Below the pieces are notes generated by a model. It was not told the origin of the DNA, made no database searches, and saw only the letters and a program-made list of their open reading frames with translations. 63,152 nucleotides of DNA, taken from positions 1 to 63,152 of IMG/VR virus record IMGVR_UViG_3300009506_000026; one strand, 5' to 3'. Origin of the DNA: a virus. Lineage: Duplodnaviria; Caudoviricetes. This document shows positions 8,310 through 45,200 of the stretch, piece after piece; positions within the stretch are counted from its first letter, which is position 1; every line of letters starts with the position of its first letter. A program made the translations under genes and the position numbers.

Positions 8310-8337
8310 AGAGAAGGGGGTTCTTTCCCCCTTCTCT
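8310..8337 (+). terminator. Strong hairpin (terminator or mRNA stabiliser)
   Basis: AGAGAAGGGGG-TTCTTT-CCCCCTTCTCT, an 11-bp perfect stem with no downstream U-tract. Confidence 0.55.
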
Positions 8338-8347
8338 GGAGAAAAAG

Positions 8348-8917: not shown

Positions 8918-8924
8918 GTGCCCC

Positions 8925-9590
8925 ATGTATAACCCATTTCTGATAAAAGAAATTAATGGTCAGTTTGAGAGGGATGAATTTGATGATGATTTCCAAAACG
9001 AAGATTTACATGAGGGAAGAGAATCCCCAGAAGTTAATTTCATTCTTCGAAACGTAAAGGGTGACATATTGGACATAGGATGTGGGAGTGGAAGTTTCTC
9101 CTGCAAATTCCCTATTGTGGCTATATTGGAGCCTAACCCTGTAAGGTTTGAGAAGGCAAAGGTAAAATTTAAAGGGATAGAGGAGAGAATGAAACAGAGG
9201 GGATTTATGGAGAATATCCCCTTTCCTGCGAATTACTTCAATAGTGTTCTAATGTGGGGTGCTTTTTGTTATGCCCGTAGTCATATGGAAGCATTGTCGG
9301 AGGTGAACAGAGTCCTTATTACCGGAGGGCATTTTGTATTGGACATAGTAACCTGGTCCAATATGCCCATTCATCAAACTTTACATGATAGATCCTTTAT
9401 TAAATTTGCTGAGGTATTTGGTTTTGAACTACTAGAAGTTAGGAAATTTGATGATCTTAATTATTATGGTAAGACTGGATTGGCTTTTAGAAAATATGAG
9501 AACTTAAATCTTGATCGTCTAAGGATCCCTCAATGCACAAAGGAGGGTGTAAGGAACTATTTGGAAAAAAGAGATTGGTTTTTGAGGTGA
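8925..9590 (+). CDS. Class I SAM-dependent methyltransferase
   Basis: ILDIGCGSG, IPFPANYFNSV, EVNRVLITGG. Confidence 0.85.
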   Translation: MYNPFLIKEINGQFERDEFDDDFQNEDLHEGRESPEVNFILRNVKGDILDIGCGSGSFSCKFPIVAILEPNPVRFEKAKVKFKGIEERMKQRGFMENIPFPANYFNSVLMWGAFCYARSHMEALSEVNRVLITGGHFVLDIVTWSNMPIHQTLHDRSFIKFAEVFGFELLEVRKFDDLNYYGKTGLAFRKYENLNLDRLRIPQCTKEGVRNYLEKRDWFLR

Positions 9591-9593
9591 ACC

Positions 9594-11186: not shown

Positions 11187-11470
11187 CAGTGGATTTAGAT
11201 GGAACTCTATGTTTAGAACCTGAAAACTTTAATCCCTACAATCCAGACTACAGGAATAGAAAACCATTCAAGCAGACCATTCTAAAAATAAATGAACTAT
11301 ATAAAGAAGGATGGTTTGTTATTATTTATACCTCAAGATACAAAGAGGATCTATTCGAAACGAGGGCTTGGTTGAATGAGAACCATGTGAAATATCATCA
11401 CATCGAATTGGGGAAACTCAGGGCAGACCTTTACATCGACCAATTAGCAAAGAGGCCGGAGGAGCTATGA
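11159..11470 (+). CDS. HAD-superfamily small phosphatase
   Basis: VAVDLDGTLC, IIYTSR, GK...LYID. Confidence 0.8.
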   Translation: MSENKSKVVAVDLDGTLCLEPENFNPYNPDYRNRKPFKQTILKINELYKEGWFVIIYTSRYKEDLFETRAWLNENHVKYHHIELGKLRADLYIDQLAKRPEEL

Positions 11471-12177
11471 TATTACTATTTTCTGGGGGTTTGGATAGTT
11501 ACATTGCATATCATTATTTAGGATGGTATAATCCCGGGATTAAAATTTCCACTTTGTACTGTGATTTAGGACACAGATACGCGGTACACGAAGTAGAGAA
11601 AGTGAAGGAATTGATCCCTACAACTATCATTGATACAAGGTTAAATCTAGCGGATTGGGAAGAAAAAGATGCAAATATCCCAATGAGAAATGCCTTCCTC
11701 AGCATGATTGCCTCTCATTATGACAGAGAAATAATTCTTGTGGTACAGAAGGGTGAGATGGAAATCCCCGACAGAACACAAAAATTTATGGAAGATATTT
11801 CTAAATTAATCACCAGATTAAAAGTCCCATCACGAGCCTGTAAAATATGGTCACCCTTCACTCAAATGACTAAGGCATCCATGGTACAATGGTATTTAAT
11901 TACAGGTCTATCTGAGCAAAAGCTGTTGAAAACAAGGAGTTGTTATTCAGCGGGGGAGAAACCTTGCGGGAAGTGCTCCGCTTGTTTCAGAAGGTGGGTT
12001 GCTATGTCGTTGAATGATCTGCATGAGGAGTACGAAAGCCCCATTTTATTAAACGAGAAAATCCCAGATTACATTCGAAAAATGATGAAGGGGAAATATG
12101 ATGCACAAAGGACAGCGGAAACTTTGGCAGCTCTGATAAAGGCAGGGTATGATGTCGATAGATATATTACTGGATAG
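11467..12177 (+). CDS. queC: Second QueC-like PP-loop protein (7-cyano-7-deazaguanine synthase family)
   Basis: LLFSGGLDS, NIPMRNAFL, MTK, SCY..CGKCSAC. Confidence 0.82.
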   Translation: MILLFSGGLDSYIAYHYLGWYNPGIKISTLYCDLGHRYAVHEVEKVKELIPTTIIDTRLNLADWEEKDANIPMRNAFLSMIASHYDREIILVVQKGEMEIPDRTQKFMEDISKLITRLKVPSRACKIWSPFTQMTKASMVQWYLITGLSEQKLLKTRSCYSAGEKPCGKCSACFRRWVAMSLNDLHEEYESPILLNEKIPDYIRKMMKGKYDAQRTAETLAALIKAGYDVDRYITG

Positions 12178-15044: not shown

Positions 15045-17648
15045 ATGTTCTTCCGAGATGAGGAAATAAAAACACAGGCAGTTAGGAGATATGATCTAAA
15101 AGAGGGTTCTCCTAACTGCATGAAGTGTGGACTGTACCGATTTGTAAAATCCCCTAGGATGCTCTGGTCTGGAAAAGGGGGGATGAAATGTCTGCAACTC
15201 GCGGAAGCTCCAGGAAACGAGGAAGATGAAAGGGGAGAACAGTTTGTTGGCGAAGCGGGATCATTATGGGAGAATCATTTAATGTTTTTAGGACTTGACC
15301 TGAACAGAGATTTCTGGAAGGATAATTCTATAAAGTGTAGACCTTTCGATGTGACCCCAACAGGAACTAAGAACAGGACCCCTAAGAAGGAAGAGATTGA
15401 ACACTGCTACCCCCTACTTGAAGAAACAATAAGACGTTTGAAACCAAGATTCATCTGGTTGCTTGGGGGGAAAGCGGTTGAGGCGTTTTATCTCAATGTC
15501 CCAATAGGGGAGAAGACAATTAATCGTTTTCGTGGTTTGTGTATCCCAGACAGACGCTGGAACTGCTGGGTTCTTCCTTTGTTTCATCCTTCCTATCTAC
15601 TTCGCCAACAAGTTGACAATAATCTTCAATCTGTATTCAGAAGGGACCTTGAAAATGCCGCGGTAAAATTAAATCTGGGGGACATTCCCCCTCTTCCCAA
15701 AGAAAACATCATTCATCTAACTGATTATACCTCACTAATAAACTTTCTTGATAAAATCATCTCTGAAAAATCCCCTATCGTGATCGACTTTGAGACTCTG
15801 GGATACAAGCCCTACTACCCAGAAATGAAAATAGTATCCATTTCAATTTCTCCTATAAATGACGATACCTCTTATGCATTCCCACTGGATTATAATAACT
15901 TTTGGCATGATGCAGATAAATTAGTAATACTCGGGAGATTGCGAGAAATTTTGGAGGATCAAGAAATTCTAAAAATTGCTCAGAATATCAAATTTGAGCA
16001 TGTATGGGCGGCAGTGGCGTTAAACATAATAATTAAAGGGTGGTATTGGGACACGATGCTGGCCTCACACATACAAGACAATCGCTCTCAATTCACCTCG
16101 CTTACCTTTCAGACTTTCATAAATTTTGGTAGAGAACCCTACGACACTGAGATGGAAAGGTATAAACGGGCACAAGGAAAGAGTCAATACAACTCCATGG
16201 ATAAATGCCCTCTAACAAAATTGCTAGACTACAATGCTCTAGACTCTCATTATACAAGGTTGCTTTTACTGAAACAGGAAAAGGAATTCGACAAGGATCC
16301 TGGTCTGATTTTCCCTCGTGATTTCTTCTTCGAAGGTACATTAAAGTTCGCGGATTTGGAAATGAGGGGAATGAACGTGGATGAAGATTACATTGAAAAA
16401 ATGTCGAACTCAGATGGCACGGGGACCATCGATAAAGAAATTCAAACGATAAAGAAGGAGCTATCGGAAGGGGAGGAGTCAAAACGATTTTTTCAGGTCA
16501 AAAGAAAGACCTTAGATATTAACAGCACGAAAGACTTAGGCGAACTGTTCTATAATATATTGGGACACGAAAGGATTTACACGGAGAAAGACAACCTCAG
16601 TGTCGATAAGAACGCACTCTCACTTATGAAAAGTGAGTTCGCGGAAAAGCTTCTCCGATATCGTACCCTGGAGAAAGTAAGGGGAACCTATCTAGCACAA
16701 TTCAAACGCTATGTTTACAAGGGGATGATTCATCCTTTCTTTGATTTAGTTATCCCTGTAACCTATCGTAGCAGTAGTTCAAAATTCAATTTTCACAATC
16801 AACCAAAGAGAGACAAACAAGCTCAAGAGTGGGTTAGAAAAGCGGTAAAACCAAGAAAGGGGCATGGCATTCTAAGTAGTGACTTCTCCGGGATAGAGGT
16901 AGGAATTAGCGCCTGCTACAATAAGGATCCCAATCTGATTGCATACGTCTCGGATAAATCAAAGGACATGCATAGAGATTCAGCTTGTGATCTTTGGATG
17001 TTGCCAAAAGAGGAGATAGAATATTGGATACGATTCTATGCCAAGAACTGTTGGGTGTTCCCACAGTTTTATGGTGATTATTATGTTGGTTGTGCAAGGA
17101 ATCTTTGGCGAAATTGCTTATTATTGAAAACAAATTCGGGGATAATTCTTAAGGATCATCTGTACGAAAAAGGAATAAAGAGGTATGAGGAGTTCGAGGA
17201 GCATTGTAAGGAGCAGCAAGATATTTTTTGGGGCACAAGGTTCCCTATTTATAAACAATGGAAAGAAGATATTCAAATCGAGTATCAAGAAAAGGGGTAC
17301 ATTGAAAGCTATCTTGGATTTAGATTCAGTGGGTATATGAGAAGGAATGAACTGACAAATTATCAGACACAGGGAACGGCGTTTCATGTACTGCTTTGGA
17401 CTTTGATCGAAGTAATGAACGTGGCGGAGGAGGAAGGGTGGGATACACATGCTTTTGGACAGATACATGATGATATGTTGCATGACTGGCACCCGGATGA
17501 ATTGGATCATGTAATTGAGACTATCAACTACTGTGGAACACAAAGGGTGAGAGAGGAATTTGATTGGATTGTTGTACCTCTACGAATCGATCACGAAGTT
17601 TCTGAAATTGATGGAAACTGGTTTGAAATGGAGGAGAAACATAAATGA
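15045..17648 (+). CDS. polA: Family A DNA polymerase with N-terminal family-4 uracil-DNA glycosylase and 3'-5' exonuclease domains
   Basis: UDG: CMKCGL, AEAPG, FVGEAG, KCRP, HPSYLLR. Exonuclease: DFET, QNIKFE, DTML, YNALD. Polymerase: SDFSGIE (A), AKNCWVFPQFYG (B), QIHDD (C). Confidence 0.93.
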   Translation: MFFRDEEIKTQAVRRYDLKEGSPNCMKCGLYRFVKSPRMLWSGKGGMKCLQLAEAPGNEEDERGEQFVGEAGSLWENHLMFLGLDLNRDFWKDNSIKCRPFDVTPTGTKNRTPKKEEIEHCYPLLEETIRRLKPRFIWLLGGKAVEAFYLNVPIGEKTINRFRGLCIPDRRWNCWVLPLFHPSYLLRQQVDNNLQSVFRRDLENAAVKLNLGDIPPLPKENIIHLTDYTSLINFLDKIISEKSPIVIDFETLGYKPYYPEMKIVSISISPINDDTSYAFPLDYNNFWHDADKLVILGRLREILEDQEILKIAQNIKFEHVWAAVALNIIIKGWYWDTMLASHIQDNRSQFTSLTFQTFINFGREPYDTEMERYKRAQGKSQYNSMDKCPLTKLLDYNALDSHYTRLLLLKQEKEFDKDPGLIFPRDFFFEGTLKFADLEMRGMNVDEDYIEKMSNSDGTGTIDKEIQTIKKELSEGEESKRFFQVKRKTLDINSTKDLGELFYNILGHERIYTEKDNLSVDKNALSLMKSEFAEKLLRYRTLEKVRGTYLAQFKRYVYKGMIHPFFDLVIPVTYRSSSSKFNFHNQPKRDKQAQEWVRKAVKPRKGHGILSSDFSGIEVGISACYNKDPNLIAYVSDKSKDMHRDSACDLWMLPKEEIEYWIRFYAKNCWVFPQFYGDYYVGCARNLWRNCLLLKTNSGIILKDHLYEKGIKRYEEFEEHCKEQQDIFWGTRFPIYKQWKEDIQIEYQEKGYIESYLGFRFSGYMRRNELTNYQTQGTAFHVLLWTLIEVMNVAEEEGWDTHAFGQIHDDMLHDWHPDELDHVIETINYCGTQRVREEFDWIVVPLRIDHEVSEIDGNWFEMEEKHK

Positions 17649-27569: not shown

Positions 27570-27716
27570 GGAAAAATTAATCCTTTTTTTCCCTACGATC
27601 ACAATGATCCGAAATCTCTCGATAATAATAGCACTTGTCCCGATATTTTCCCTTTTCAAAATATTCACACTCCTTGCTCTGAGCATCGGGACAAGTGCAG
27701 ATCGTTAGGTTTCCTT
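27568..27716. terminator. Convergent-arm junction with nested inverted repeats
   Basis: 14-bp perfect IR 27631-27644/27685-27698 plus outer pairings. Confidence 0.5.
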
Positions 27717-27985
27717 CATGATTCTGGCAATTCTTCTTCTCCATTTTGGGGCCTCTTCAATGCTCTCTGTAAAAGATCATTTTTTTCGGAGGACCCTTGG
27801 GAGGTATGAAAATACCAACCCATTGAGGTAACGTATGATCCAACTAAAGCACCTACAAGTATGTCTATCGTCCTTTGAGCAGGTTCTGGGATACTCGGAC
27901 TAATCAACAGGAAGATAAGAAGTACTGCAAAAAACCCTAACGTATTAAGCAACGCAAACACAAATTGAGCCTTATTTCTAGACAT
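27716..27985 (-). CDS. Holin-like two-TM protein
   Basis: Two TM helices, WYFHTSQGS motif, charged C-terminus. Confidence 0.6.
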   Translation of the reverse strand: MSRNKAQFVFALLNTLGFFAVLLIFLLISPSIPEPAQRTIDILVGALVGSYVTSMGWYFHTSQGSSEKNDLLQRALKRPQNGEEELPES

Positions 27986-27986
27986 G

Positions 27987-28481
27987 CTACCCCCAATATA
28001 GTGCAAATCGTTTCACCTGCACAACCAAATCATCCACACTTAAATAAAGCAAGTTTTGATCATATTCAGGGACGATCTGACCATCAGGCATCGACAAAAA
28101 GAACTCCGACATGACCAAGAACGTACCACCTACCATGCTGTTGAATTTTGTCAGTTGAGCAAAGGCCAAGATTTTCAAATCCCCATAAGTAATCCCCGCT
28201 TCAATCCGTTTCTTTACCTCATTCATCCATTTCTCAAACTGATCAGCTTGCCACAGTTCTAATACCAATCCTTCTTTTGCTGCCACGACCATCATTGCAT
28301 GAACGGCGCAGGGGTTCTGTTTCAGTTTGTCAGCCTGTTCACAAATCGAGGATGTTATCGCTCCTTCCGAAGCCTTCCATTCATCACACACGGAGCAGGG
28401 CCTATCAAAAGGATTGTTTATGTGTAATGTACCACATCCTACCAAAAAAATCAGCAACAAAATAAAACCCAATCGTTTCAT
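27987..28481 (-). CDS. Lipoprotein
   Basis: MKRLGFILLLIFLVGC lipobox. Confidence 0.7.
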   Translation of the reverse strand: MKRLGFILLLIFLVGCGTLHINNPFDRPCSVCDEWKASEGAITSSICEQADKLKQNPCAVHAMMVVAAKEGLVLELWQADQFEKWMNEVKKRIEAGITYGDLKILAFAQLTKFNSMVGGTFLVMSEFFLSMPDGQIVPEYDQNLLYLSVDDLVVQVKRFALYWG

Positions 28482-28921
28482 TTTCCAATCTCCTTAGATA
28501 AATGTTCAATCGATTTCTTATTGGAATTCATTGTTTCCATTGCTCCCCTCATGAATTCCTCTGTTTTTCCCATATGCCTGTTAATACTTTTGATCAAATC
28601 AAGATATAGACCCTCTGTTTTTTCTTCCCACTTAACCCTCCTTTCCTCGGCTTTGTCCAATTGAATACACAAAGCCGTTATTTTTTTCTCCACGCTACCC
28701 ATACTGTTCGAAAGTGGACAAGTTGCTCGAAATCCCGCACACCTCTCTTCCGAGACAATCTTTTGTGAGGTTAATTTATCCATGTCCTTCTCCAAACCTT
28801 CGATTTTTTCTTTCTGCGCCCCCTTATCTTCATTTATCCTTTTTGAAAATTGGTACCAAGTGAATATCAGACCGCATGCCGTTAAGAAAAATCCGAATAT
28901 TGTTTCCCATCCAAGTGTCAT
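28478..28921 (-). CDS. Single-TM coiled-coil protein (holin/anti-holin-like)
   Basis: N-terminal TM followed by a coiled coil; ATGA overlap. Confidence 0.6.
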   Translation of the reverse strand: MTLGWETIFGFFLTACGLIFTWYQFSKRINEDKGAQKEKIEGLEKDMDKLTSQKIVSEERCAGFRATCPLSNSMGSVEKKITALCIQLDKAEERRVKWEEKTEGLYLDLIKSINRHMGKTEEFMRGAMETMNSNKKSIEHLSKEIGK

Positions 28922-29859
28922 CCATCTTCTCCTTTCCATTTCCTTGCCCACTCTTGAATAGAGATTTTCTGCTGATTGGCGATATGCTTTCTGTGTGGTT
29001 GGCACTTGGCAATGACATCCTGATAGATGTTCTTTAAAGCTTCGGGTTTCCCCTTCATGTTTTCAGAGAACAATCGACATAAATCCTCTCCTCCATAACA
29101 ATATGTTGCAATTAATTTATTCCTTAAATAATCGTCGTACACATAACAATACCCCCTTTTCTCCCCATGATGAAAAAGAGGCTCCGTAGGGAATATCCAT
29201 TTCTTCATTCCCATCACTGCCAATGAAAAATTCAAAAATTGCTCACCCCCAGAATAAATTCCAAGCTCAGGAGGCCATCCCCCCAATTTATTGTAAACCT
29301 CCCTTGACATCATTACTCCACAACAACTCATACAAGGGACCTCATAGGGAGATTCATTCCTCCTGTACCCCGTAAAAGAATAATCTAAATGTCCTTTACT
29401 TAGATTGTTTACCAACTTGTAAATCAATATATGTGATTCTAAGATTTTGTATGTTAAGGGCAAATGAAGGGTACCATTCAGCTCCCTATGATTCTCTTTA
29501 TAAAATTGGAACATATTAAATAGAGAGTCTCGGGAGATAATACAATGGGCATCACAGAACCAAAGAAAATCCCCCGTGGAATGCTTCACTCCTAAATTCT
29601 TTGACTGCCAATGTGACAGCTTCTTTTCATACTTCAAATATTTCAACCAGGGATTGATCCTACCAGAACAGGCATTCACTGCCTCTCCACTTTTGTCATT
29701 TTCATATCCTAACGATTTTACCTGCTCGCAATAATTATCCACTGCAATGACTTCAAAATCAACTCTGCCCCTTAGTTCCTGTGCAATGTTCTGTAGGGTA
29801 AAAAGGACTTGTGGATACTCATTACAAAAAGGAATTATCACGGACAACTTTTCATTCAT
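28918..29859 (-). CDS. GT-A glycosyltransferase with polypeptide GalNAc-transferase (GT27)-like motifs
   Basis: LSVIIPFCNE, FCDAHC (DxH), VPCMSCCGVMMSREVYNKLGGW, GIYSGGEQFLNF. Confidence 0.85.
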   Translation of the reverse strand: MNEKLSVIIPFCNEYPQVLFTLQNIAQELRGRVDFEVIAVDNYCEQVKSLGYENDKSGEAVNACSGRINPWLKYLKYEKKLSHWQSKNLGVKHSTGDFLWFCDAHCIISRDSLFNMFQFYKENHRELNGTLHLPLTYKILESHILIYKLVNNLSKGHLDYSFTGYRRNESPYEVPCMSCCGVMMSREVYNKLGGWPPELGIYSGGEQFLNFSLAVMGMKKWIFPTEPLFHHGEKRGYCYVYDDYLRNKLIATYCYGGEDLCRLFSENMKGKPEALKNIYQDVIAKCQPHRKHIANQQKISIQEWARKWKGEDG

Positions 29860-29862
29860 CCT

Positions 29863-30750
29863 TCACCTCACCAATGATTGCAAATATTTGTCGAAATCCC
29901 TCGCCGACCTCTCTATATTATATCCTATTCTGAATTTATTCCTCCCTGATTTTCTTACTTTATTTAGGATTGTTCCATTCGATAATATCCAATTTAGTTT
30001 ATCAACAAAATCAAATTGAGTGTATCCAATATAATCCTTACCTTCGATTAAATTAGCATAAGGAAAAAGCTTAGTTTCATCTAAACTTTTGTGGGCAAAC
30101 AGAAGGGCTCCCGTTCTTAAAACATCGGTATACATATCGGAACTGGGACCAAATCCAGGACATCCTATAACCACCTTTGTTCTTCTCAATTCTTGTAAAT
30201 ATTGTTCCCTCTGAATCCTCCCATGCACAATCAAATCATTGGTAAAGTTTTTGAATAGTAATTCTTTAACGCTTTCCCGAATATAGTGTGGGTATTTCGG
30301 TTTCGAAAAACTAAAAATGGAACACCGGAAATTGATTACAATCTCCCTATCAAATTCATCCTCATAGATTTCCTCCCCCGAATTGATTGAAACAATAAAG
30401 GCTACAGGGTAATTATTCAGATAAAACTTAGTTGGAGCGCATTTAATTCGTGGAAATAAATTCCCAAATCGTAGGAATCCATTCTGATTCCCATTATCAT
30501 GAGAATCAAGCAATACTTTGGGTCCTTCAAAATCTAAAAACAGCTTGTCGGTCTTTTCAATAACCCACGGCTTGAATTTGTACCCCATAGTCTCATTAGG
30601 AAATGTATTATATACCAACACATCTCCTAAATTTTCTGTGTATTCTGCTAAAGGATTCCATATGATCGTATGCTTATCCTCTAATAAAGACAGCATTTTT
30701 TGGAAGTATTTTTGATTACTGCCCTTAGAAAAACAATATTGAATTTTCAT
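29863..30750 (-). CDS. GT-B-like glycosyltransferase (CgeB/Glyco_trans_1_2-like)
   Basis: YLQELRRTKVVIGCPGFG, DVLRTGALL, DFVDKLNWIL. Confidence 0.7.
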   Translation of the reverse strand: MKIQYCFSKGSNQKYFQKMLSLLEDKHTIIWNPLAEYTENLGDVLVYNTFPNETMGYKFKPWVIEKTDKLFLDFEGPKVLLDSHDNGNQNGFLRFGNLFPRIKCAPTKFYLNNYPVAFIVSINSGEEIYEDEFDREIVINFRCSIFSFSKPKYPHYIRESVKELLFKNFTNDLIVHGRIQREQYLQELRRTKVVIGCPGFGPSSDMYTDVLRTGALLFAHKSLDETKLFPYANLIEGKDYIGYTQFDFVDKLNWILSNGTILNKVRKSGRNKFRIGYNIERSARDFDKYLQSLVR

Positions 30751-31478
30751 TCCTCCCTCTCCCATTCTAAAAAGAAAGCTTTGCTACCTTTCTTCTTGAA
30801 TTTATAATCTGCCATCCATCTCCTCCCTAAATCTTGAATATAATTGGGTGAGTTCGGTTTTCCAAAGACACCGAACTTCCATTTTAATACCTCATCTAGT
30901 AGGGGGGATCCTTTCTCATGAAATTGTTTCTCGGGATTAAAATCTTCTCTAAGATAGGGGAGACAGTTCCTAACAAAATCATGTCTAATTAAGGAGGGAT
31001 GTCCACAAAATCCTACTCCCCCAATCAGCTCCTTCGGACATTCGAAATAATCCCCATTCCAGGGGAAAAACTTATCCCAATTTTTCATTTTATCCTCTGA
31101 GGATTTGAACTGGGGGAGTCGAAGGGAAGCAAGTTCAGGATATTTCTCCATTAAAAATATCATTTTCTTTAAACTCACAAATACTTTTAATTCCCAATCA
31201 TCCTCCAAATGAAAAATAAATTCTGATTCCGTTTGTTCCCATGTCCATTTAAAGGCGGAGGCAAAATTGGGTTTCTCCGCTATTCTATATTTGCCCATGT
31301 GGGGGTAAAACATTTCAACCACATCGATTACTCTTTGTGGATGACTTGTCCCTATAGGATCTACATTTACAATAGGACGAATAGTTGCTTGCCCAAATAA
31401 ATTATTCTCAAAGGAATATAAAGTTCGATACAGAATCTCCGGGCGACAACAAGCCGTTATGGTTACATCGATGATCAT
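30747..31478 (-). CDS. GT-A glycosyltransferase
   Basis: ITACCRPEIL..TLYSF, FIFHLEDDW, GHPSL. Confidence 0.8.
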   Translation of the reverse strand: MIIDVTITACCRPEILYRTLYSFENNLFGQATIRPIVNVDPIGTSHPQRVIDVVEMFYPHMGKYRIAEKPNFASAFKWTWEQTESEFIFHLEDDWELKVFVSLKKMIFLMEKYPELASLRLPQFKSSEDKMKNWDKFFPWNGDYFECPKELIGGVGFCGHPSLIRHDFVRNCLPYLREDFNPEKQFHEKGSPLLDEVLKWKFGVFGKPNSPNYIQDLGRRWMADYKFKKKGSKAFFLEWEREE

Positions 31479-31479
31479 T

Positions 31480-32091
31480 TCAGGAGTACCTCCTTTTCTG
31501 AAAATACAATAGATTGTCATAAAAGGCTTTTATGCCTGGTTTTTTCTTCCATGGTTCCCACGCTCTTCGGATTCTATCTACCGGATTGGAATTGAACTCA
31601 TAAGATTTATAATGGAACTTTTCTATCCAATATTCCGCTGGTTGACAATTTACATGGTAATGTCCCCCTTGTCCTGGGGGAGCGGCGGACAAAAGCAATT
31701 TATCGGAAAAGGCGATCAGATTGTCCAATAAGATATCGGAATACTCTTCCTCAATATGCTCCAATACTTCAAAACAAGTGCAAAGATCGAACCTCCCTGG
31801 GAACATATTTTGCACGTCTATGGGGCTTCTTAAATCCATATAAACAATGAATCTGGTCATGGCAAACTGTGAGGCATGTTTCGATCCTTCAAGACCCCAA
31901 GCAACTATCTCCCATTTCTTCCGAAAATGATCCACCAAATCGCCTACCGCACATCCTACATCCATAAGAGTTGTAGGATTAAACTCTTCCATTATTGCAC
32001 GACAGACGTGCTCCGCTCTCCAGGCAAGACGGGTATGAATTTTGAAAAAGTGTGGTTTGTAAATTTCTTCAAGTGGTTTTCTATTCTCCAT
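31480..32091 (-). CDS. Class I SAM methyltransferase
   Basis: MDVGCAVG, FDLCTCFEVLEHI, SAAPPGQGGHYHVNCQ. Confidence 0.88.
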   Translation of the reverse strand: MENRKPLEEIYKPHFFKIHTRLAWRAEHVCRAIMEEFNPTTLMDVGCAVGDLVDHFRKKWEIVAWGLEGSKHASQFAMTRFIVYMDLRSPIDVQNMFPGRFDLCTCFEVLEHIEEEYSDILLDNLIAFSDKLLLSAAPPGQGGHYHVNCQPAEYWIEKFHYKSYEFNSNPVDRIRRAWEPWKKKPGIKAFYDNLLYFQKRRYS

Positions 32092-36059: not shown

Positions 36060-36997
36060 AAAAAATTCCTATGCCTTAATGGAGTGAATCTTTTGTCCCT
36101 AACCTTCTCATACACTTTAGCATAATTTATATATCGACAGGATCCACAGATTCTAAGATCGGGTTTAAATTGATTCCTTCTTGCCCAAATATCTTCCAAG
36201 CTTTCCTCGTTCACATCCCCTATAATAAAATCAGGATTTCCTCTATGAACACAACAATAATAAACCTTGCCATTCGCTCCCACCTGACCTATTAGACCTG
36301 CGATTTGACAAGGGAGATTGGAGTCCAATTCTACCGAATATCTATCAACCTTAAATAACCCCTCATCTGAAATGTTCCTCATTGTACTTTCAATTCCAGA
36401 GATTTTCCAAGCAGGTTTTATTTGTGCATAAGATACTCCCAATGATTCCGCTAGTTCTCTAAACCCCTCAACCTCCTGTTTATTTTTCTCCGTGACTACC
36501 ATACTTAACCCTACATCTGTTTTCCCTACACACATTCTTACATTCTCTATAACCTCATCGAAAACATTGTTTCCTTTTATGGCTTCGTATGTTTTAGGAG
36601 TAGCCGCATCCAAACTAATCCTAATAAATTGAAACTTGTCAAGCACCCCCTCCACCCGATCCAAAAATATTCCGTTTGTTATTAACCCAATTTCTAAACC
36701 TAAATCGTAAGCCGCCCAAATCATCTTCTCCGCAAAAGGATTTGTTAATGGTTCTCCCCCACCCGACAATGTAATGGATTTCGCTTCCATTTGGTACACT
36801 TCAAAAATGACATCACTAAATGTAGACCATGTCATTACCGAACGATCCTTGTTTAGATAATTCTTGTAATGACAAAAATAGCACCTATTCTGACAAGTAT
36901 TAGCAATGTCAATTTCACAGGTTACAAAGGGCTGTCTTTTCCCTTCTATTATCCTATCTGTTTCCTTTAAAAAATTTAGAATCTTGAAATCCATCAT
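36056..36997 (-). CDS. Radical SAM / SPASM-twitch protein
   Basis: CQNRCYFCH, SGGGEP, ITNG, ISLDA, C..G..G.VYYCC, CGSC. Confidence 0.9.
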   Translation of the reverse strand: MMDFKILNFLKETDRIIEGKRQPFVTCEIDIANTCQNRCYFCHYKNYLNKDRSVMTWSTFSDVIFEVYQMEAKSITLSGGGEPLTNPFAEKMIWAAYDLGLEIGLITNGIFLDRVEGVLDKFQFIRISLDAATPKTYEAIKGNNVFDEVIENVRMCVGKTDVGLSMVVTEKNKQEVEGFRELAESLGVSYAQIKPAWKISGIESTMRNISDEGLFKVDRYSVELDSNLPCQIAGLIGQVGANGKVYYCCVHRGNPDFIIGDVNEESLEDIWARRNQFKPDLRICGSCRYINYAKVYEKVRDKRFTPLRHRNFL

Positions 36998-37778
36998 CTT
37001 CCCACTCCACGTAATTTTTTCCTTTATGTGAATAATATCGAAATCTAATACCTGCTCTCCTCAACAAGTTTCTAAATCTTTCGGTGTCTCCCGTCACAGG
37101 TCCCACTATTTTACGGTCATACACGCTGAAAAAAGTATCCCCTATTCTAAAAATAGGACCATCTTCCTTAAATTCAAAATCCTTTTTGAATGTTCTCCTT
37201 AAATGAGTAACTAATAAATTAAAATTGACCTCCTCTTTGGGATAAGCATTTTCTTTTTTTATCTCAACTGGGATTCCCGCGGCAAAACAGAAATCAGGTA
37301 AATCTTTATTTACTAAGGACATTGCGGCTACCATCACTCCCTTTCCAATAGTGACCCCAGGATTCACCCAAGCATGTGGCAGCCAGGAAAAATGTCGTAT
37401 CTCTACAGGAGCAAATTGAAAGGGGTATCCCCAATCATAGGGAGCATAAGCACCATGTGTCCAAATATTGGACTGATGTCCTATTCCCACCTCATGCCAT
37501 ATTTTCACTCTACAAGCGGTATTGATATGAGCAAATCGTCCTAAATGCAAAAAGTCCCCTGCGATCAATTCCGATGTTTCCTCGAAACAACTACCCCCTC
37601 CTATCCAACTATATTCATGAATCCAAGCCTCTCTACCGATTATTACCGATCTACCCTCGATCTTAGCATAATCGTTAATCACACTACCATCACCAATTTC
37701 AAAATGTTCGGTGACATTGATCGTGGCTTTCGGACTTATTCTAACATTTTCTCCCTGTTGCCATCTCATAATAGCCAC
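36954..37778 (-). CDS. Hexapeptide-repeat (left-handed beta-helix) O-acyltransferase
   Basis: IWTHG, VNPGVTIGKG, AAMSLVNKD, AAGIPV. Confidence 0.85.
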   Translation of the reverse strand: MAIMRWQQGENVRISPKATINVTEHFEIGDGSVINDYAKIEGRSVIIGREAWIHEYSWIGGGSCFEETSELIAGDFLHLGRFAHINTACRVKIWHEVGIGHQSNIWTHGAYAPYDWGYPFQFAPVEIRHFSWLPHAWVNPGVTIGKGVMVAAMSLVNKDLPDFCFAAGIPVEIKKENAYPKEEVNFNLLVTHLRRTFKKDFEFKEDGPIFRIGDTFFSVYDRKIVGPVTGDTERFRNLLRRAGIRFRYYSHKGKNYVEWEDDGFQDSKFFKGNR

Positions 37779-38392
37779 CTCTTTACTTCAAAGGCTTCGG
37801 CGTATTTACATCCACATTCTGATCCTCTGACCCGAGCTTTTGCTTCTATCGCTTCTATGGATCTTTGATGTGGAAACTCCCTCATCTCACACACAATTTT
37901 TTCCAAAGTGAGTAATTTTTTGTTCATAAATTTTTCAATGTTCACATATAGATTAGGAGCAAATGTTGTGGAACCCCCTAAATATTCACAACATAAAAGA
38001 CCTACCGGTCTTCCATAACACCTTGCTTGCACCAATGCACTCTTAAATACAATCCTATGATCCTCATTTATATCATGCTCAGAATGAGTAATAATTAAAT
38101 CAAATTTCAGCCCCAACGATTCAAATCTTTTATTTAATTCCAACTGACCATATTTATCAAATTCCATTGTAGGGATATTCAAAAAGAAACAATTACTCAA
38201 TGGAACACCTAAACACGTGGCAATCTTTTCCGATTCCTGTCTATAACTTACTCCTGGTCTTCCATGAACAACAATCCCATTATTTGCCCAAACAATAAAT
38301 ACTTGATGATTCTCCGAAATAAATTTGGCTATAGTTCCCCCACAATACAAAATCTCATCATCCACATGAGCCACATATACCACGATGTTCAT
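37766..38392 (-). CDS. PIG-L/LmbE family N-acetylhexosamine deacetylase
   Basis: AHVDDEILYCGGT, THSEHDINEDH, YAEAF. Confidence 0.9.
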   Translation of the reverse strand: MNIVVYVAHVDDEILYCGGTIAKFISENHQVFIVWANNGIVVHGRPGVSYRQESEKIATCLGVPLSNCFFLNIPTMEFDKYGQLELNKRFESLGLKFDLIITHSEHDINEDHRIVFKSALVQARCYGRPVGLLCCEYLGGSTTFAPNLYVNIEKFMNKKLLTLEKIVCEMREFPHQRSIEAIEAKARVRGSECGCKYAEAFEVKRWLL

Positions 38393-38970
38393 TCCACCAA
38401 ACCTTTTCCAATATCGTAATACATTACACAAAACCTACCAAGCTTATCCAATGTGTATTGCTTTATATTCAAATGTGAATAATTATAGTTGCTCATAATC
38501 GTTCCTATCCTACGAGCAATCACCCCTTTGTGAAAATCATCCACAACCAAATAAGTTCCCGTATTAACAAATTGGGATAAAACTGTTTCCAAATACTTAT
38601 GTCTATGCCCAGTAACATCGATATCATAAAAGATCAGATCAAAGGCTTTATTGGCTCCTTTTATCTCTGGCCAAATAAAAAAACCTTCGCTTCCCAATTC
38701 ATGCTTCTTAGAGAAAGCTTTACTTTTCTGTAGCCATCCTTTATTGGCATCCACAGACCAAATATCTGTATCCAAATTATTCCTCTTTTTATACAATCGA
38801 AAGGCACAACTGCTTATTCCACTACCAAGATCCAAGATACTCTCCGCTTGTTTTCTCCTGAACATTCTCATCAAAAATAAACAGCATTCTAAGGATGCCG
38901 CCATTCCTGATATCGTACTTGTATATTCTTCATGAATCGCCGTAAACTCTTCCTTCAATTGTTCATCCAT
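38389..38970 (-). CDS. Class I SAM methyltransferase
   Basis: ILDLGSGISS, SVDANKGW, FDLIFYD, VVDD. Confidence 0.8.
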   Translation of the reverse strand: MDEQLKEEFTAIHEEYTSTISGMAASLECCLFLMRMFRRKQAESILDLGSGISSCAFRLYKKRNNLDTDIWSVDANKGWLQKSKAFSKKHELGSEGFFIWPEIKGANKAFDLIFYDIDVTGHRHKYLETVLSQFVNTGTYLVVDDFHKGVIARRIGTIMSNYNYSHLNIKQYTLDKLGRFCVMYYDIGKGLVE

Positions 38971-40105
38971 TGATCATCTCATATTCTTCTAGTAAAGATT
39001 GAATTCCTTGTGATGGGTCACTCGCCGTCAACATGGTGAAAAGTTTTTTCATTTGGGGCAAAACGACCTGCTCTATCCCGAACGATCTTTCATAATACAT
39101 ATACACACTCGTTTTGTCTGAGAAGTCTCGGGATCCAAGTTCTCCTTTAATCACACGGGCTATTTGTCTAAAGTCATCACTGTTATTTATGACTGTGCAA
39201 ACATCGGGGTTGGAAGATATTAAAGGATGGTGTCTATGTGGGAAGGACATAATCACTCGGGTTCCACATCGGAGAGCCTCAAGAGGTCCTCTATCATTTT
39301 GTCCATGTCCCCCTAAAAATAACGCCAACTTGGATTTATTCAAAATCTCACAAACTTCATTTCGGGGAACCATCCCTGTCATTCTAATTCTCAAATCATG
39401 ATCCAAAATATCCTGTAGGATTCCATTTGTAAATGTACCATGAGTTTTTCTGCCCGGGAGAATACAATTAAGCTTTTCCCCATATAACTTTTGGTACTCA
39501 ATCGCCACCTTCACCCCTCTCCATTGAGCCTTCTTGTCATGAATATGTGAACACCCAATACACACATCATAAATCTTAGGGGTCTTGATTGGACGAAAAA
39601 TGTAAGGATTCACTGGCTTTCTAAAATCTAAAAACAATCTGTTGTTCCTTCGGTCATACCAGTCCTTGCCACTTAAATCATCAAACACAATATCCCAAAA
39701 TTTCCACCTTTGTCTTCCCGTATTTGCAGCATATAAAAGTAACCAATGCTTTCCCTTCAATTCATTCAACAGATTAAACCAACTACGAAATCCCCCTCTT
39801 GCCCAAATAATATCTCCCTCCTTCAAAAACTCTCTCAGAACTTCAAAATGAGGGATCACATAACACTGGTGTCCTTCCAACGATGTTTGTCCTGTATTTC
39901 TTCCTGACTCCGCAAAGATCAAAACATCGTCAACGATTGCCTCCTCCTTCATCCTTTTTATTATTTGGAAGTATCCTTCAGTACCAAGACCGGAGTTCTC
40001 TCTTAGATACTCACAATGGGATTTCTTTCGTCTATCCCAAGGTTGATTCACCTCTCCACAACTGCCCCCCATATATATAAAAATCAACCTATTCATTTCA
40101 TCCAC
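38963..40105 (-). CDS. GT-B glycosyltransferase
   Basis: GMVPRNEVCEILNKSK, NDRGPLEALRCGTRVI. Confidence 0.78.
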   Translation of the reverse strand: MDEMNRLIFIYMGGSCGEVNQPWDRRKKSHCEYLRENSGLGTEGYFQIIKRMKEEAIVDDVLIFAESGRNTGQTSLEGHQCYVIPHFEVLREFLKEGDIIWARGGFRSWFNLLNELKGKHWLLLYAANTGRQRWKFWDIVFDDLSGKDWYDRRNNRLFLDFRKPVNPYIFRPIKTPKIYDVCIGCSHIHDKKAQWRGVKVAIEYQKLYGEKLNCILPGRKTHGTFTNGILQDILDHDLRIRMTGMVPRNEVCEILNKSKLALFLGGHGQNDRGPLEALRCGTRVIMSFPHRHHPLISSNPDVCTVINNSDDFRQIARVIKGELGSRDFSDKTSVYMYYERSFGIEQVVLPQMKKLFTMLTASDPSQGIQSLLEEYEMING

Positions 40106-40929: not shown

Positions 40930-42210
40930 TTACCAAGCCTGTATTGCCTCCTGCATTACTGGAGCATAATATCTAAAATAAAGTGAATCCATGTTATAGG
41001 TCTGTCGGCAAAATGTCTTTACCTTTAACACCTCACTTTGTCTCAGTCTCGCCACAATTGTATGAGCAATGGCGGCCCAATATTGCTCATTAGGGGGATT
41101 AAAATTTCTATGGAAACTACCAAACTCAAAATACAGAGCCTCGTGATTTGTAATCTCCACTTGGTTATCTAAGGATCTATTTAAAACTAACAAGGTGCCC
41201 GAGGCGGCGGCTTCGGGCACCACTAAACCAAAACTCTCCTCTCTTGTTGGAAAAATGAAAAGATTACTTAATAGAAATAGTTGGGATATCATGTGTTTGG
41301 GAATGCCTACATCATATTTGGGTGACTCAAATTCAGAAGTAAATATAATCTCCTTTCCCACAAACAATCCCTTTTCCTTTGCAATTTGCTTGTACCTATC
41401 AACATCTTCCTTCTGTTGTTTCCCTGTTGCCCATTGACAAGCTACTACTAAACAAATCGAAAAACCCATTGCCTTTAACTCACTAAAGATGGTGATTACT
41501 TCGGCAACCCTTTTAGCCTCAAGTCTATCAACGGAAGCAGGGAGCAATTGCACAATATCCGCTTGCATTACGGAAGGGTTTTGATCTATGAATCGCAGGG
41601 TATCTTCGTGGAAATCAAAGAAGGTTCTTGGATCTTTTATGTGTGGGATTATTCTCACATTATCATCCATCCCCCTGTACTGCTCCGCCACTCTTGTTCT
41701 ATAGGAAGCAGTAGGGAATACCAACTTATGATTTTTTCCATATGTCTGGATGTTCCACCAATCTCTCGCCACGGAGGGCATACTGTGAATCCAATGTAAC
41801 CACCGGGTATCAGGCATTCTTCTACCCACTTCAATGCAGGCTAAACCATAAGGCAAATTCCACCCAGTGAACACAAAATCATGTGTAAAGATGATTTTAA
41901 TCCCCGTTGATTCCAGTTCTTTGCAAAGAGCATTTGCAGTAGTATTAACAAGGAGCTTATGCTCGGCGGACATTTTGTATTGACTTTTGTAATCAACAAG
42001 GTGAGAGAAGGGAATTGATTTGTGCAAGGTTACTTCGGCAGGGAAAGTTTCTCCATTGTACCCCGAATTTACGAATAAGTGAACCTCATGCCCATGCCTG
42101 TTGAGCATCATTACTTGATCCTTCACGATGCCTGTTAGACTGTAGCCGGGCTGAAATTCCATGAACGTGGTTAGAATCGCAACTTTTTCTTTCATTTTTT
42201 TCTCCTTCAT
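40930..42210 (-). CDS. GT4 glycosyltransferase
   Basis: GHEVH, FIFPTREESFGLVVPEAAASG (ExF-x6-E). Confidence 0.9.
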   Translation of the reverse strand: MKEKKMKEKVAILTTFMEFQPGYSLTGIVKDQVMMLNRHGHEVHLFVNSGYNGETFPAEVTLHKSIPFSHLVDYKSQYKMSAEHKLLVNTTANALCKELESTGIKIIFTHDFVFTGWNLPYGLACIEVGRRMPDTRWLHWIHSMPSVARDWWNIQTYGKNHKLVFPTASYRTRVAEQYRGMDDNVRIIPHIKDPRTFFDFHEDTLRFIDQNPSVMQADIVQLLPASVDRLEAKRVAEVITIFSELKAMGFSICLVVACQWATGKQQKEDVDRYKQIAKEKGLFVGKEIIFTSEFESPKYDVGIPKHMISQLFLLSNLFIFPTREESFGLVVPEAAASGTLLVLNRSLDNQVEITNHEALYFEFGSFHRNFNPPNEQYWAAIAHTIVARLRQSEVLKVKTFCRQTYNMDSLYFRYYAPVMQEAIQAW

Positions 42211-42269: not shown

Positions 42270-45200
42270 TTATGAATAGCCCTGACATTCATACATTGAT
42301 ATTTCGGCGCACCCCGACTGGTAACTTCCTCCTCCCTGAGCTTCCGTGATTCTCCATCTATAATATTCATAATTTATCCCATTCGGAAATATCCAAGACT
42401 TTTCCTCTCCTTGTGCCCACGATAGTCCAGATTGACTATAGACGGTTGATTCCTCTCCTGAAAAATCTCCTGTACTTGAACCCTCCAGTACCCAAGACTT
42501 GGGAGCATACCCTATCGGTAATGGAGCCCATCTAATTACCAACCGCTCAATGTTCTTTGAGGCTGTTAAATGAAGTTTAATCCATGCATCTGCCGTTCCT
42601 ATGGTATCATAGGACATCCAAGCAGTTGTCTGATTGTCATCCGTCGCATTATCATCAATATAGGTGAGATATTCACTGCTGCTGCTAATTGTACTGCCTG
42701 TGGCACAATCCGATCCCCAGTCCGTACAATCCTCTGGTCCATAAAGAGTTGTTGTAGTAGTTGAGGAACAGGTGCTAGTACTCATCGTGGAACTTGTAGT
42801 TGAAAGTGTGGAACTTGTCGAGCTTGTAGTGGACAAAGTGCTGGTGGTTGAAGCTGTGGAACTGGAAGAACTGGTCGAACTCTGTGTAGAAGTGGTAGAC
42901 AAAGTGGAACTGCTAGAGCTTGTTGTAGACAACGTGCTTGTAGTTGAGGCTGTGGAACTGCTAGTAGTCGAACTTGAAGTGGTAGTTGTGGAACTTGTCG
43001 TTGTTGAAGTTGAACTAGTGGTGGACAAAGTGCTGGTTGTCGAAATTGTGGAACTGCTGGAGCTTGTTGTGGAGGCTGTGGAACTGCTGGTCGTAGTTGT
43101 TGAAGTAGTGGAACTTTGTGTTATAGATGTTGTGGTAGTCGAACTGCTTGAACAGGTCGTGGTGGTAGATGTAGTAGTGCTTGTGGTTGTAGAAGGATAC
43201 GTTGTTTCTGTTGTGGTAGTCGAACTGCTTGAACAGGTGGTTGTCGTACTGGAACTGGTCGTTGATAGGGTGCTTGTCGTGGACAAAGTGCTTGTGGTTG
43301 AAATCGTACTTGTGGTGGTAGATGTTGTGGATGTTGTCGTTGCCCCCGTTTCAGTCCAAGACTGATTATATAATTCAATATTAAATAGATACATTGGGTT
43401 GTGGTTACCGAGAGGTGTTGCAAATTCCAAATATTGCAAATCTCCTCTATTAAGCCAATTAAGATCAATCGTCCAATATTGAGTCCATTGAGGTAAAAGT
43501 ACATTGTAAATTACAGGACCAGAAGTGGTTCCTATCGTTAACCACGTATCCGCAGTAGGTGTTTCTAAGGGGTAAAAGGTTAATCTTATCTTTGCAGGTC
43601 TTAAATTATTTGCCCAATTTCCCTTTACCGACAACTTTGATACATGCATATCCCCCAAATGTGCATCTGGGTTATCATTAAATTCCCAATAATCATAATC
43701 ACCGTGCCAGGAAACCGATATGGGAGTTTCGGGTCCAGCTTGAACAGGCTCCCAACGATGATTGTCAAAAAATGAGGACCAGGGTCCTGCATACTCCACG
43801 TGTAGTTCCGCAGCATTGGTGGAATCGTAATTCTCATCCCCTGTCGCTGAATCTACCGTCATTCCCCCCCATTCATCCTCATTTAAAACTACATCTCTAT
43901 CCGATTTTACAATAACAATTAAATTTCCCCCATATCCTGGTCTGTTTATCACCTCCTGCAAAGATTCTGAAAAATCCACAGACCAAAACCATTCATGTTC
44001 ATTGGCACTTCGTATAAAAGACCATTTGGTACTAGCTGAGGTCAAAGGAAGAGCGTTATACTCCGCAATAGAAGTAGGGGCGACAGGATCATCCGCATCC
44101 ACCAAAAAGATTTCGGCAAAGGCGGAGCCCCCCTCAAGAACTGAGGAATAAGAAAAAGCACTTAATTTTAATCTTGAAGAAATAATAAGACTTTCCGGTT
44201 CAATATCTACATTTATGAATCTAAAAAAGGCATCATAATTATGAACAGTACCAGAATCGTTATCAGGACCAAAAATGATATTCCCAGTGGAGTTAAATGT
44301 TAGTTCTGTAATATGTCCATCATTTGCATTTCCTCTAACTTCCCAATAATCACTTGTCGAAGCGATTATCTTCAAAGAGGAGGAAGTCTGCCGACACTCT
44401 ATTTTTGCCCCCCTCGTACTTTGCACTATTCGGGTAACTCTGAACTTAGTGTACTCACTTATACATTGATTCAGTAGATCACGATCAAAGATTTCAAAAG
44501 GGGTAAACTCAAATTGGATAATATCCCCTTTATCAATTTCTGATAAATAGTCCCCACCATCAAATTCACAAATCAATCGAGGTTGTCTGTTTTCTCCAAG
44601 TACCCACCCTGCAAAAGATAGGGCCTGTGATTCCCCAACAACAAAATCTAAATCTATTGGTTCCCCTGTTAATTGACCATAAATATCTTGACTATCTGCA
44701 TCCTCTACCTCTATTACACTTTTTGACTTCTCAAGTTCTGATTTATTTCTTTCGGACCACTCTTTGGCATAGCTAATTAAAAATCGATTTCTAAGTTCGG
44801 AACGCTTGGTAAAACGCGATCTTGCGGTATTAAGAAAAATTCTCCCCTCATTGATCGTCTTATCGGAAGTGGTATTATCTGGGATATACTTTAGATGGTG
44901 CTCACCTAAACTATGGAACCAAGCACTCTTAGCTTGAAAAGCTATATTGGATACTAATTCCAGGACGTTCGGCGCTTCCGTTATAACTACTCCAAGAACA
45001 ATCGCTTCCGCCACGTAATTGGTGTGTGCGGTATTAAAATCAGCATTAAAATTATCTACCGACTCTCCACAATAATTAATCAAAAAATGTTGAATAATTT
45101 TCCCTGGGTATTCCAATAACTGACCCGATATTCCATACCCCCTACTTTGAATATCTGCTGATACTCTACCCCCTAATACTGTGTCCGCCACACTGTTTCC

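Follow-up and report, generated by a model that had tools for sequence, protein, structure and literature searches.

A GT27-like glycosyltransferase family coupled to poly-threonine tracts in phage genomes

The virus record IMGVR_UViG_3300009506_000026 (Duplodnaviria; Caudoviricetes), 63,152 bases in length and estimated to be 74% complete, is referred to here, in its entirety, as the window. At positions 28918-29859 of its minus strand lies an open reading frame (ORF) with an ATG start, encoding a predicted glycosyltransferase (GT) of 313 amino acids (aa). The modelled fold of this enzyme resembles the catalytic domains of the polypeptide N-acetylgalactosaminyltransferases (ppGalNAc-Ts) of family GT27 clearly more than any other match listed; the motifs of the enzyme are conserved throughout a family that is found almost exclusively in phages, and that family is genomically coupled to poly-threonine tracts. 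On balance, the reading favoured here is that the enzyme is a soluble, retaining, manganese-dependent polypeptide O-glycosyltransferase that starts the glycosylation of the virion, and that the threonine-run ends of the capsid and tail tube proteins are probably sugar-coated by it.

Motifs, fold and family of the enzyme

The features of the enzyme gene are as follows.
28918-29859, minus strand: GT27-like GT-A glycosyltransferase, 313 aa (ORF; PF00535; confident structural model; GT27 ranked first by both Foldseek and VIA)
29545-29553, minus strand: D103-A-H105, the DxH metal motif (alignment and conservation)
29239-29250, minus strand: G204-G-E206-Q207, counterpart of the Gal/GalNAc-T GGEN, without an Asp after the Glu (alignment and conservation)
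29170-29172, minus strand: H230, counterpart of the C-terminal metal-binding His, or C-His (profile alignment and conservation)

An initial annotation, made without database searches, had read the string FCDAHC (residues 101-106, 29542-29559) as the DxH motif of GT27, and this reading is borne out. Against 177,635 PDB sequences, the best match of the single enzyme sequence is human GalNAc-T10 (2d7i, E = 2.3e-4), over residues 5-225 with both motifs covered; in the HMMER alignment FCDAHC lies opposite FLDSHC, and GIYSGGEQFLNFSLAV opposite EIWGGEQYEISFKVWM. A second string, VPCMSCCGVMMSREVYNKLGGWPPELGIYSGGEQFLNF, which the annotation had likened to the Gal/GalNAc-T motif, comprises residues 174-211 with GIYSGGEQFLNF as its distal part, and is followed by LFHHGEKRGY at residues 228-237. 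This parallel stands in the alignment, where GIYSGGEQ pairs with EIWGGEQ/EIWGGEN of GT27, and in the near-complete conservation of its Gly and Glu, but is hardly visible at the level of PF02709, the Pfam model of the Gal/GalNAc-T region, which matches 1 of 30 family members and that one weakly (E = 0.055). Judged from these alignments and from the conservation given below, the likeness of the motifs to those of GT27 exceeds chance.

Pfam matches of the enzyme itself are generic only: PF00535 (E = 3.2e-13, 50.4 bits against a cut-off of 23.3) and PF10111 (E = 1.3e-6). The former matches all 30 family members and does not discriminate between GT2 and GT27, because it also covers GT27 catalytic domains. 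Searches of PHROGs gave only a weak match to a GtrB-like O-antigen conversion family (E = 0.0045) and those of NCBIfam only matches far under their cut-offs, while PF11397, the GT60 model, had no match at E up to 1 in the window or among the 30 family members. When a profile of these 30 members (A1) was compared with the PDB, the best match was TarP (6h1j, E = 1.2e-5), confined to the N-terminal half (positions 1-127), followed by eleven ppGalNAc-T sequences (E = 5e-5 to 2e-3); for the C-terminal half (positions 167-285) the matches are ppGalNAc-Ts alone. The profile places H230 on the metal-binding His of the GHV sequence of TgGalNAc-T3.

An AlphaFold2 (AF2) model of the enzyme, built without templates, has a mean predicted local distance difference test (pLDDT) score of 95.3 and a predicted template modelling (TM) score of 0.92. 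Compared with the PDB by Foldseek, its best 50 rows are all ppGalNAc-Ts (E = 3e-16 to 2.5e-12; TM by query 0.63-0.76 over 304-335 columns). A first VIA run, all-against-all with 48,161 representative chains, returned mGalNAc-T1 at Z 26.3 (288 residues, root-mean-square deviation (rmsd) 3.1) and TgGalNAc-T3 at 25.3, followed by K4CP (19.0, 230 residues aligned), WrtF (18.9), heparosan synthase (18.7) and SpsA (17.8) and, lower still, TarS (16.4), TarP (16.2) and the peptide S-glycosyltransferase SunS (12.3). A second look at Foldseek's best 1000 chains gave 29 GT27 entries at Z 24.2-28.4, aligned over 274-290 residues within model residues 1-313, and then WrtF at 19.8; these are best rows, beyond which other families may still match, and they speak to shape rather than to function. 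The initial annotation had proposed a GT27-like signature and a comparison of GT27 with GT2 as its check. In that comparison all sugar-acceptor GT2s rank far behind the catalytic domains of GT27, and the enzyme does not cluster with ordinary GT2s.

The annotation was also right that a ricin-type lectin domain is absent. By Pfam, with GT2-type matches only, and by fold alignment the 313 residues are catalytic domain throughout, and residues 1-313 of the model superpose on the catalytic domain only of GT27 chains that are 447-546 residues long. GT27 enzymes carry a type II membrane anchor and a stem. No such element was found in the phage enzyme, in which the first strand of the fold is at residue 5 and model residue 1 aligns to residues 114-207 of the GT27 chains. 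Because the protein starts at the first fold strand and ends with the catalytic domain, with neither anchor nor lectin domain, it should be cytoplasmic and soluble.

Conservation was assessed among 106 relatives of at least 280 aa, 24-57% identical to the query, which were drawn from an exhaustive search of sequence representatives. H105, G204 and H230 are kept in all 106, D103 and E206 in 105, N247 in 104, Y237 in 102 and R235 in 99. The position after E206 is occupied by Asn (54), Gln (14), His (13), Pro (13), Ala (5) or other residues (7), and the Asp that serves as catalytic base in the xED motif of inverting GT-A enzymes is found there, at position 207, in none of the 106. The aromatic residue before GGE is Tyr in most members, not Trp. 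According to the part consulted of the GT-A survey by Taujale et al. (2020; PMC7185993), only GT27 and GT60 have exchanged DxD for DxH, and both O-glycosylate Ser/Thr of polypeptides. The survey further states that in GT27 a C-terminal His coordinates the metal, that the Asp of xED acts as catalytic base in inverting enzymes and varies in retaining ones, and that GT27 and GT60 share one clade with GT7 and the chondroitin-synthase GT2s. For mouse GALNT1, the text available from PMC4202792 gives Asp209, His211 and His344, together with a ricin-like lectin domain. Based on the motif conservation and on these partial sources, the enzyme is probably Mn-dependent and retaining, of the GT27/GT60 type, the lack of a catalytic-base Asp suggesting an alpha-linking mechanism as in those two families.

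A word-indexed search identified 554 family proteins at E up to 0.001, the best 120 listed being 53-67% identical to the query, and the exhaustive search of 1.84 billion representatives yielded 376 at E up to 0.001 and 164 at E up to 1e-10. So small a yield from an exhaustive search indicates a compact family, distinct from the mass of GT2s. Two longer relatives, P0122 and P0129, are fusions to a second GT2 domain, and P0129 also matches PF02709 (E = 3.6e-6); no lectin domain was found in relatives of up to 740 aa, in which the extra domains are GT2 or PqqD. The latter type is represented by P0248, a distant relative of 423 aa from the representative library with an N-terminal PqqD domain (E = 1e-10), which aligns with the query over its full length at 24% identity and retains DAH, GGEE and the His. 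PqqD-type domains are the peptide-recognition elements of pathways for ribosomally synthesized and post-translationally modified peptides, and by analogy this fusion points to a peptide substrate in the branch of P0248 and hints at peptides as substrates in the wider family.

In IMG/VR the family is present on 65 viral loci, and among 185,579 species genomes it occurs in six, all of them contigs of metagenome-assembled genomes (MAGs; loci L142-L147) labelled Desulfobacteraceae or Deltaproteobacteria (4), Proteobacteria (1) and Thorarchaeota (1). These labels hint at sediment sulfate reducers as hosts, possibly with an archaeal virus or a mis-binned contig among them. In the BFVD, 5 of the best 20 viral matches to the model, from uncultured Caudovirales, are named 'Glycosyltransferase, GlcNAc' (E = 7e-11 to 4e-9; TM by query 0.53-0.61), which we take to be the name of the GT60-type Pfam family; going by these names, the DxH-type polypeptide transferases of phages may belong to more than a single family.

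Poly-threonine tracts in the window and in related records

The initial annotation had proposed that the enzyme acts on Thr/Ser tracts of virion proteins and had singled out ends of the form TTTTTA. Three minus-strand ORFs of the window do end in this way (52265-52906, 57869-58543 and 59347-60675), and two further proteins carry internal tracts.
59347-60675, minus strand: major capsid protein, 442 aa, ending TSTTTTSSSSTTTTTA (tail at 59353-59397; phrog_29 E = 1.4e-42, PF03864 E = 1.8e-28)
52265-52906, minus strand: probable tail tube protein, 213 aa, with twelve Thr and an Ala at its end (52271-52306; gene order and a low-confidence model)
57869-58543, minus strand: head-module protein, 224 aa, ending TTTSTTTSTTTSTTTTTA (match only to a PHROG of unknown function)
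55634-57823, minus strand: mucin-like protein, 729 aa, nearly pure Ser/Thr from about residue 124 to 700 (no family match in Pfam or PHROG)
42270-46736, minus strand: tail-module protein, 1488 aa, with a Ser/Thr tract at about residues 1141-1350 (42675-43340; no Pfam family)

For the 213-aa protein neither Pfam nor PHROGs yielded a family, and no PDB sequence matched. The model, which is of low confidence (pLDDT 55.2), matches tail tube proteins, among them those from Mystique, Bxb1, YSD1, T5, T1 and lambda; this fold lead is backed by gene order, the gene lying upstream of the tail chaperone and of a tape-measure-sized ORF of 1342 aa, and the protein is probably the tail tube. Its Ser/Thr tail is kept in 120 of the 120 homologues listed, in runs of 7-17 residues. 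In the 729-aa ORF about 580 residues are Ser/Thr, and local GC content reaches 0.47 with a change of sign in GC skew; its product may be a decoration protein or fibre of the head and serve as a phage mucin.

The flanks of the 65 family loci were compared with 47 control viral loci drawn by an arbitrary 15-mer. A tailed ORF was defined as one of at least 80 aa with at least eight Ser/Thr in its last 12 residues, within 10 kb of the gene, where ORFs were called crudely from the first Met in each stop-to-stop frame. Such an ORF is present at 21 of the 65 family loci against 0 of 47 controls, and a mucin-like run within the same distance at 39 of 65 against 0 of 47. At the level of ORFs, 27 tails and 64 mucin-like runs were counted among 1943, against none among 569 (Fisher p = 0.0018 and 1.3e-7, respectively), in counts that are not independent events, the family loci being mutually related. 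With loci merged at 70% identity of the glycosyltransferase, a tail is found in 17 of 46 clusters and a tail or a mucin-like run in 27 of 46.

Whole records give a sharper result. Runs of six Thr codons, (ACN)6, occur in 39 of the 49 family records (of the 65 loci) that were searched, including all 16 that are at least 90% complete, and in 0 of 46 random records, a controlled comparison that supports the proposed link between the enzyme and the tracts. The runs are nearly always confined to one strand per record; the reversed control pattern gave 13 matches in one family record. Four records of 113-277 kb (G040, G050, G055 and G057, at loci L033, L046, L052 and L054) have 103-162 overlapping six-Thr-codon matches each on a single strand, and therefore appear to encode very long poly-Thr proteins.

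None of the structural proteins of the window has a homologue in the flanks of the 65 loci, indicating that the tails sit on unrelated virion proteins across phages. Homologues of its other genes are common there: the GT4 gene at 52 of 65 loci, a methyltransferase at 39, a 257-aa GT-A protein at 38 and a 380-aa protein at 35. Ten tailed ORFs were tested, of which some match tail-protein PHROGs (E = 1e-64, 1e-34 and 1e-14) and five match nothing; tailed ORFs are present in three of the six MAG loci as well.

The comparison was also run in reverse, with a weaker outcome, from 25 records containing an ORF of at least 100 aa that ends in six Thr and an Ala, most of them fragments 6-30% complete. 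The family is present in 3 of these and was not detected in 22, and it is present in 2 of the 3 that are at least 90% complete. A one-to-one coupling of the family and poly-Thr tails is thereby rejected, such tails occurring with other enzyme sets too; GT-B genes were present in 3 of 5 T-tailed partial records checked that had no detected family member.

The proposed initiating role and its alternatives

Under the favoured reading, the metal and the diphosphate of a uridine diphosphate (UDP)-sugar would be bound by D103, H105 and H230, with the sugar itself in contact with the Glu of the GGE(N/Q) turn. In the late phase of infection, Thr/Ser hydroxyls would receive their first sugar from the enzyme, both in the disordered poly-Thr C-termini of virion proteins, the capsid and tail tube among them, and in the mucin-like tracts of the two large virion-module proteins; the adjoining GT-A and GT4-type transferases and methyltransferases would then extend and tailor the glycan. 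In this scheme the donor sugar, the peptide nature of the acceptor, the role as initiator, the retaining chemistry and the place of the enzyme among the at least four glycosyltransferases of its module are inferences. The initial annotation had likewise proposed an initiating enzyme, one that would add an N-acetylhexosamine. Support for the initiator role comes from the DxH, GT27/GT60 character of the enzyme, the full-domain fold match and the PqqD-fused relative. A complex prediction of the enzyme with capsid residues 398-442, run without controls, scored 0.01 against a mark of 0.32 and counts neither way.

The module in question belongs to a minus-strand block that runs from 63 kb down to 28 kb and comprises the head protease, major capsid, tail genes, glycosylation genes and spanin-like ORFs; plus-strand genes up to 27.5 kb are devoted to replication and DNA modification. 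The enzyme gene lies at the end of the minus-strand block, adjoining the spanin-like ORFs, and is the last of a series comprising a GT4 gene, a 380-aa GT4-like gene, a methyltransferase, a PIG-L gene, a hexapeptide acyltransferase, a radical SAM/SPASM gene, a ClpP-like protease, a metallophosphatase, a second methyltransferase, the 257-aa GT-A gene and a 300-aa ORF of unknown type. The principal features of the block are as follows.
61408-62541, minus strand: head protease, in the structural part of the block
40930-42210, minus strand: GT4-type glycosyltransferase, 426 aa (PF00534 E = 7.2e-7; phrog_2170; homologue at 52 of 65 loci)
38963-40105, minus strand: probable GT4-type (GT-B) glycosyltransferase, 380 aa (Atlas leads to PF00534 clusters; homologue at 35 of 65 loci)
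36954-38970, minus strand: hexapeptide acyltransferase (PF00132), PIG-L-type de-N-acetylase (PF02585, E = 6e-17) and methyltransferase (PF13847), candidates for sugar tailoring (homologues at 1-3 of 65 loci each)
31480-32091, minus strand: S-adenosylmethionine methyltransferase (PF13489 E = 7.8e-8; homologue at 39 of 65 loci)
30747-31520, minus strand: probable second GT-A glycosyltransferase, 257 aa (Atlas structure and feature leads to GT2-type clusters; homologue at 38 of 65 loci)

The PIG-L deacetylase and the acyltransferase, whose homologues occur at 1 of 65 family loci each, suggest from their predicted families that an N-acetylhexosamine is present somewhere in the glycan. Between 32680 and 36997 on the minus strand lie the metallophosphatase (404 aa), the ClpP-like protease (245 aa, separate from the head protease) and the radical SAM/SPASM protein (313 aa); in NCBIfam the latter comes nearest to maturases of peptides or cofactors, at scores far under their cut-offs. 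Downstream of the enzyme gene, within 27716-29005 of the minus strand, three ORFs together resemble a lysis cassette: one of 175 aa with a single hydrophobic segment and a weak match to Rz-like spanins (E = 0.0016), one of 164 aa whose start (LVGC) is lipoprotein-like, and a hydrophobic one of 96 aa. As listed, the 175-aa ORF shares 88 bases with the 3' end of the enzyme gene, and its true start is therefore probably further in. One other record (G006) has the same module, with the 257-aa GT-A, the methyltransferase and a pair of GT4 genes, but its sequence stops at the point where a GT27-like gene could have followed, and it is uninformative.

Several observations weigh against the favoured reading. 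Identity to GT27 is 13-18%, and the PF02709 match is nearly absent from the family. The loci behind the tract counts are related to one another, and in the reverse test the family was not detected in 22 of 25 records with poly-Thr tails, mostly fragments, or in 1 of the 3 that are at least 90% complete. The module contains at least three further probable glycosyltransferases, and the GT4-type gene is almost as conserved as the enzyme family itself; GT4 enzymes initiate O-GlcNAc addition on the serine-rich repeat adhesins of bacteria. The sugar-acceptor enzyme K4CP is the next-best fold match after GT27, and the glycans of these virion proteins are predicted ones. The clade of the enzyme includes the sugar-acceptor GT7 enzymes and chondroitin synthases, according to the part of PMC7185993 consulted.

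In a less probable but substantial alternative, the enzyme is an extending transferase with a sugar acceptor in the same virion pathway and a GT4-type enzyme or the 257-aa GT-A places the first sugar. The three other probable transferases of the module, the GT4 gene at 52 of 65 loci, the GT-B genes of T-tailed partial records and the ranking of K4CP, WrtF and heparosan synthase directly behind GT27 all agree with such a role, as does the use of sugar acceptors by GT7 and chondroitin-synthase GT2 enzymes of the same clade (PMC7185993, in part). Likewise, the Che8 transferase called essential for capsid glycosylation in the consulted text of PMC12363180 is of GT25 type and not GT27-like. What argues for a peptide acceptor instead is the restriction of the DxH variant to the polypeptide transferases of GT27 and GT60 (PMC7185993, same part), the whole-domain match to GT27 at 4-7 Z units above all sugar-acceptor enzymes, and the fusion of the distant relative P0248 to a peptide-binding PqqD domain.

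Prophage TarP and GtrB-type seroconversion enzymes modify polymers of the host envelope, and a similar target (teichoic acid, lipopolysaccharide or capsule), with the poly-Thr tails unrelated, is conceivable here but improbable. TarP is the best profile match of the N-terminal half of the enzyme, and the weak PHROG match is to a GtrB-like family; however, TarP and TarS reach Z 16.2-16.4 where GT27 reaches 25-28, neither sequence nor model has a membrane segment following the catalytic domain, and the family tracks poly-Thr tracts across records. The gene moreover lies in a late structural-lysis block, and no integrase was found among the window proteins scanned, small ORFs having been partly scanned.

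Action on phage DNA or on a small molecule is more improbable still. Phage transferases often act on DNA, as stated in the part of PMC12619734 consulted, and this phage, which carries a 7-deazaguanine gene set, appears to modify its DNA. Yet the gene is in the structural rather than the replication block, no enzymes of hydroxymethyl-pyrimidine synthesis were found among the plus-strand proteins scanned, no DNA transferase is among the best fold matches listed, and the coupling to poly-Thr would go unexplained.

The 7-deazaguanine set, a full one, occupies 6240-12177 of the plus strand and consists of QueD/PTPS (6240-6665), a QueE-like radical SAM protein (6629-7342), GTP cyclohydrolase I (8348-8917), a methyltransferase (8925-9590), a glutamine amidotransferase-QueC fusion (9594-11186) and a second QueC-like protein (11467-12177), presumably replacing guanine in the phage DNA. 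At 15045-17648 (plus strand) is an 867-aa family A DNA polymerase with a 3'-5' exonuclease and an N-terminal domain of the uracil-DNA-glycosylase superfamily (PF03167 E = 5e-19). No near relative of the window was found in the phage collection searched, which returned one weak protein match (Tunturi_4, 25% identity).

Relation to known glycosylation systems

With the ppGalNAc-Ts the enzyme shares the superposition of its whole length on their catalytic domain (Z 24-28, 274-290 residues, rmsd about 3), the DxH, the GGE(N/Q) turn and the C-terminal His of a predicted metal site, and likely substrates that, as in mucins, are dense Thr/Ser tracts. It differs from them in its low identity and marginal E-values (2.3e-4 for the single sequence, from 5e-5 for the profile), in having no ricin-type lectin domain, stem or membrane anchor, in the Tyr that mostly takes the place of Trp before GGE, and in being phage-encoded and, by prediction, cytoplasmic, whereas GT27 enzymes reside in the Golgi. 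Membership of a CAZy family rests on sequence similarity. With no lectin domain, no membrane anchor and marginal sequence similarity, the enzyme is not filed as a formal member of GT27; as judged from sequence and model, it belongs to a DxH-type family of its own, carried by phages.

Enzymes of GT60 have no lectin domain, and the one from trypanosomes acts on Thr-rich mucins. The phage enzyme resembles them in the motif, GT60 having DxH for DxD, glycosylating polypeptide Ser/Thr and adjoining GT27 in the GT-A tree (PMC7185993, as consulted), but differs in the absence of a PF11397 match. The bacterial GT2 enzymes K4CP, heparosan synthase, SpsA and TarP/TarS share the GT-A core, PF00535 and, for TarP, the N-terminal half, at lower fold scores (Z 16-19.8, 217-244 residues aligned); they use DxD and a catalytic-base Asp, whereas the phage family has DxH and no Asp at that position.

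The nearest biological precedent is provided by mycobacteriophages. In Che8, Corndog and Myrna, phage transferases glycosylate the C-termini of capsid and tail-tube proteins (PMC12619734, PMC12363180 and PMC11256854, each in the part consulted). Here, too, the capsid and the probable tail tube carry Ser/Thr tails, as putative sites of glycosylation. The enzymes differ: Che8 gp110 is of GT25 type, gp108 and gp109 are weakly GT2, and comparison of gp110 and gp109 with the enzyme family by hhalign gave no homology (probability 0.2% and 0.7%). In the window, by contrast, the transferase is GT27-like, the poly-Thr tails are long, and mucin-like proteins extend over hundreds of residues. In the literature searched, with subscription papers and supplements outside the search, no report of a phage GT27-like enzyme or of poly-Thr virion tails was found.

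To our knowledge, glycosylation of the proteins of the phage particle has so far been shown only in mycobacteriophages, with enzymes unrelated to this family. The arrangement described here is different and more mucin-like, with poly-Thr tails on the two most abundant virion proteins, further proteins with hundreds of Ser/Thr residues and a GT27-like transferase encoded nearby, and it is seen again in dozens of viral records, 20 to 277 kb in size. If this arrangement is borne out, the enzyme would be a small, soluble, lectin-free tool for making mucin-type glycopeptides in bacteria, the system would offer a handle on why phages outside animal hosts coat themselves with glycans, be it for stability, for shielding from proteases or adsorption, or for sticking to polymer matrices, and the viruses of prokaryotes would supply a branch for tracing the origin of GT27/GT60 chemistry. 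As a bolder and decidedly tentative proposal, this may be a widespread lineage of environmental phages that makes its own mucins, in which a lectin-less, true evolutionary relative from the GT27/GT60 clade coats capsids, tail tubes and fibre-like proteins with dense O-glycans through their poly-Thr. DxH polypeptide O-glycosyltransferases would in that case not be a eukaryotic invention but would be shared with, or exchanged through, the viruses of prokaryotes.

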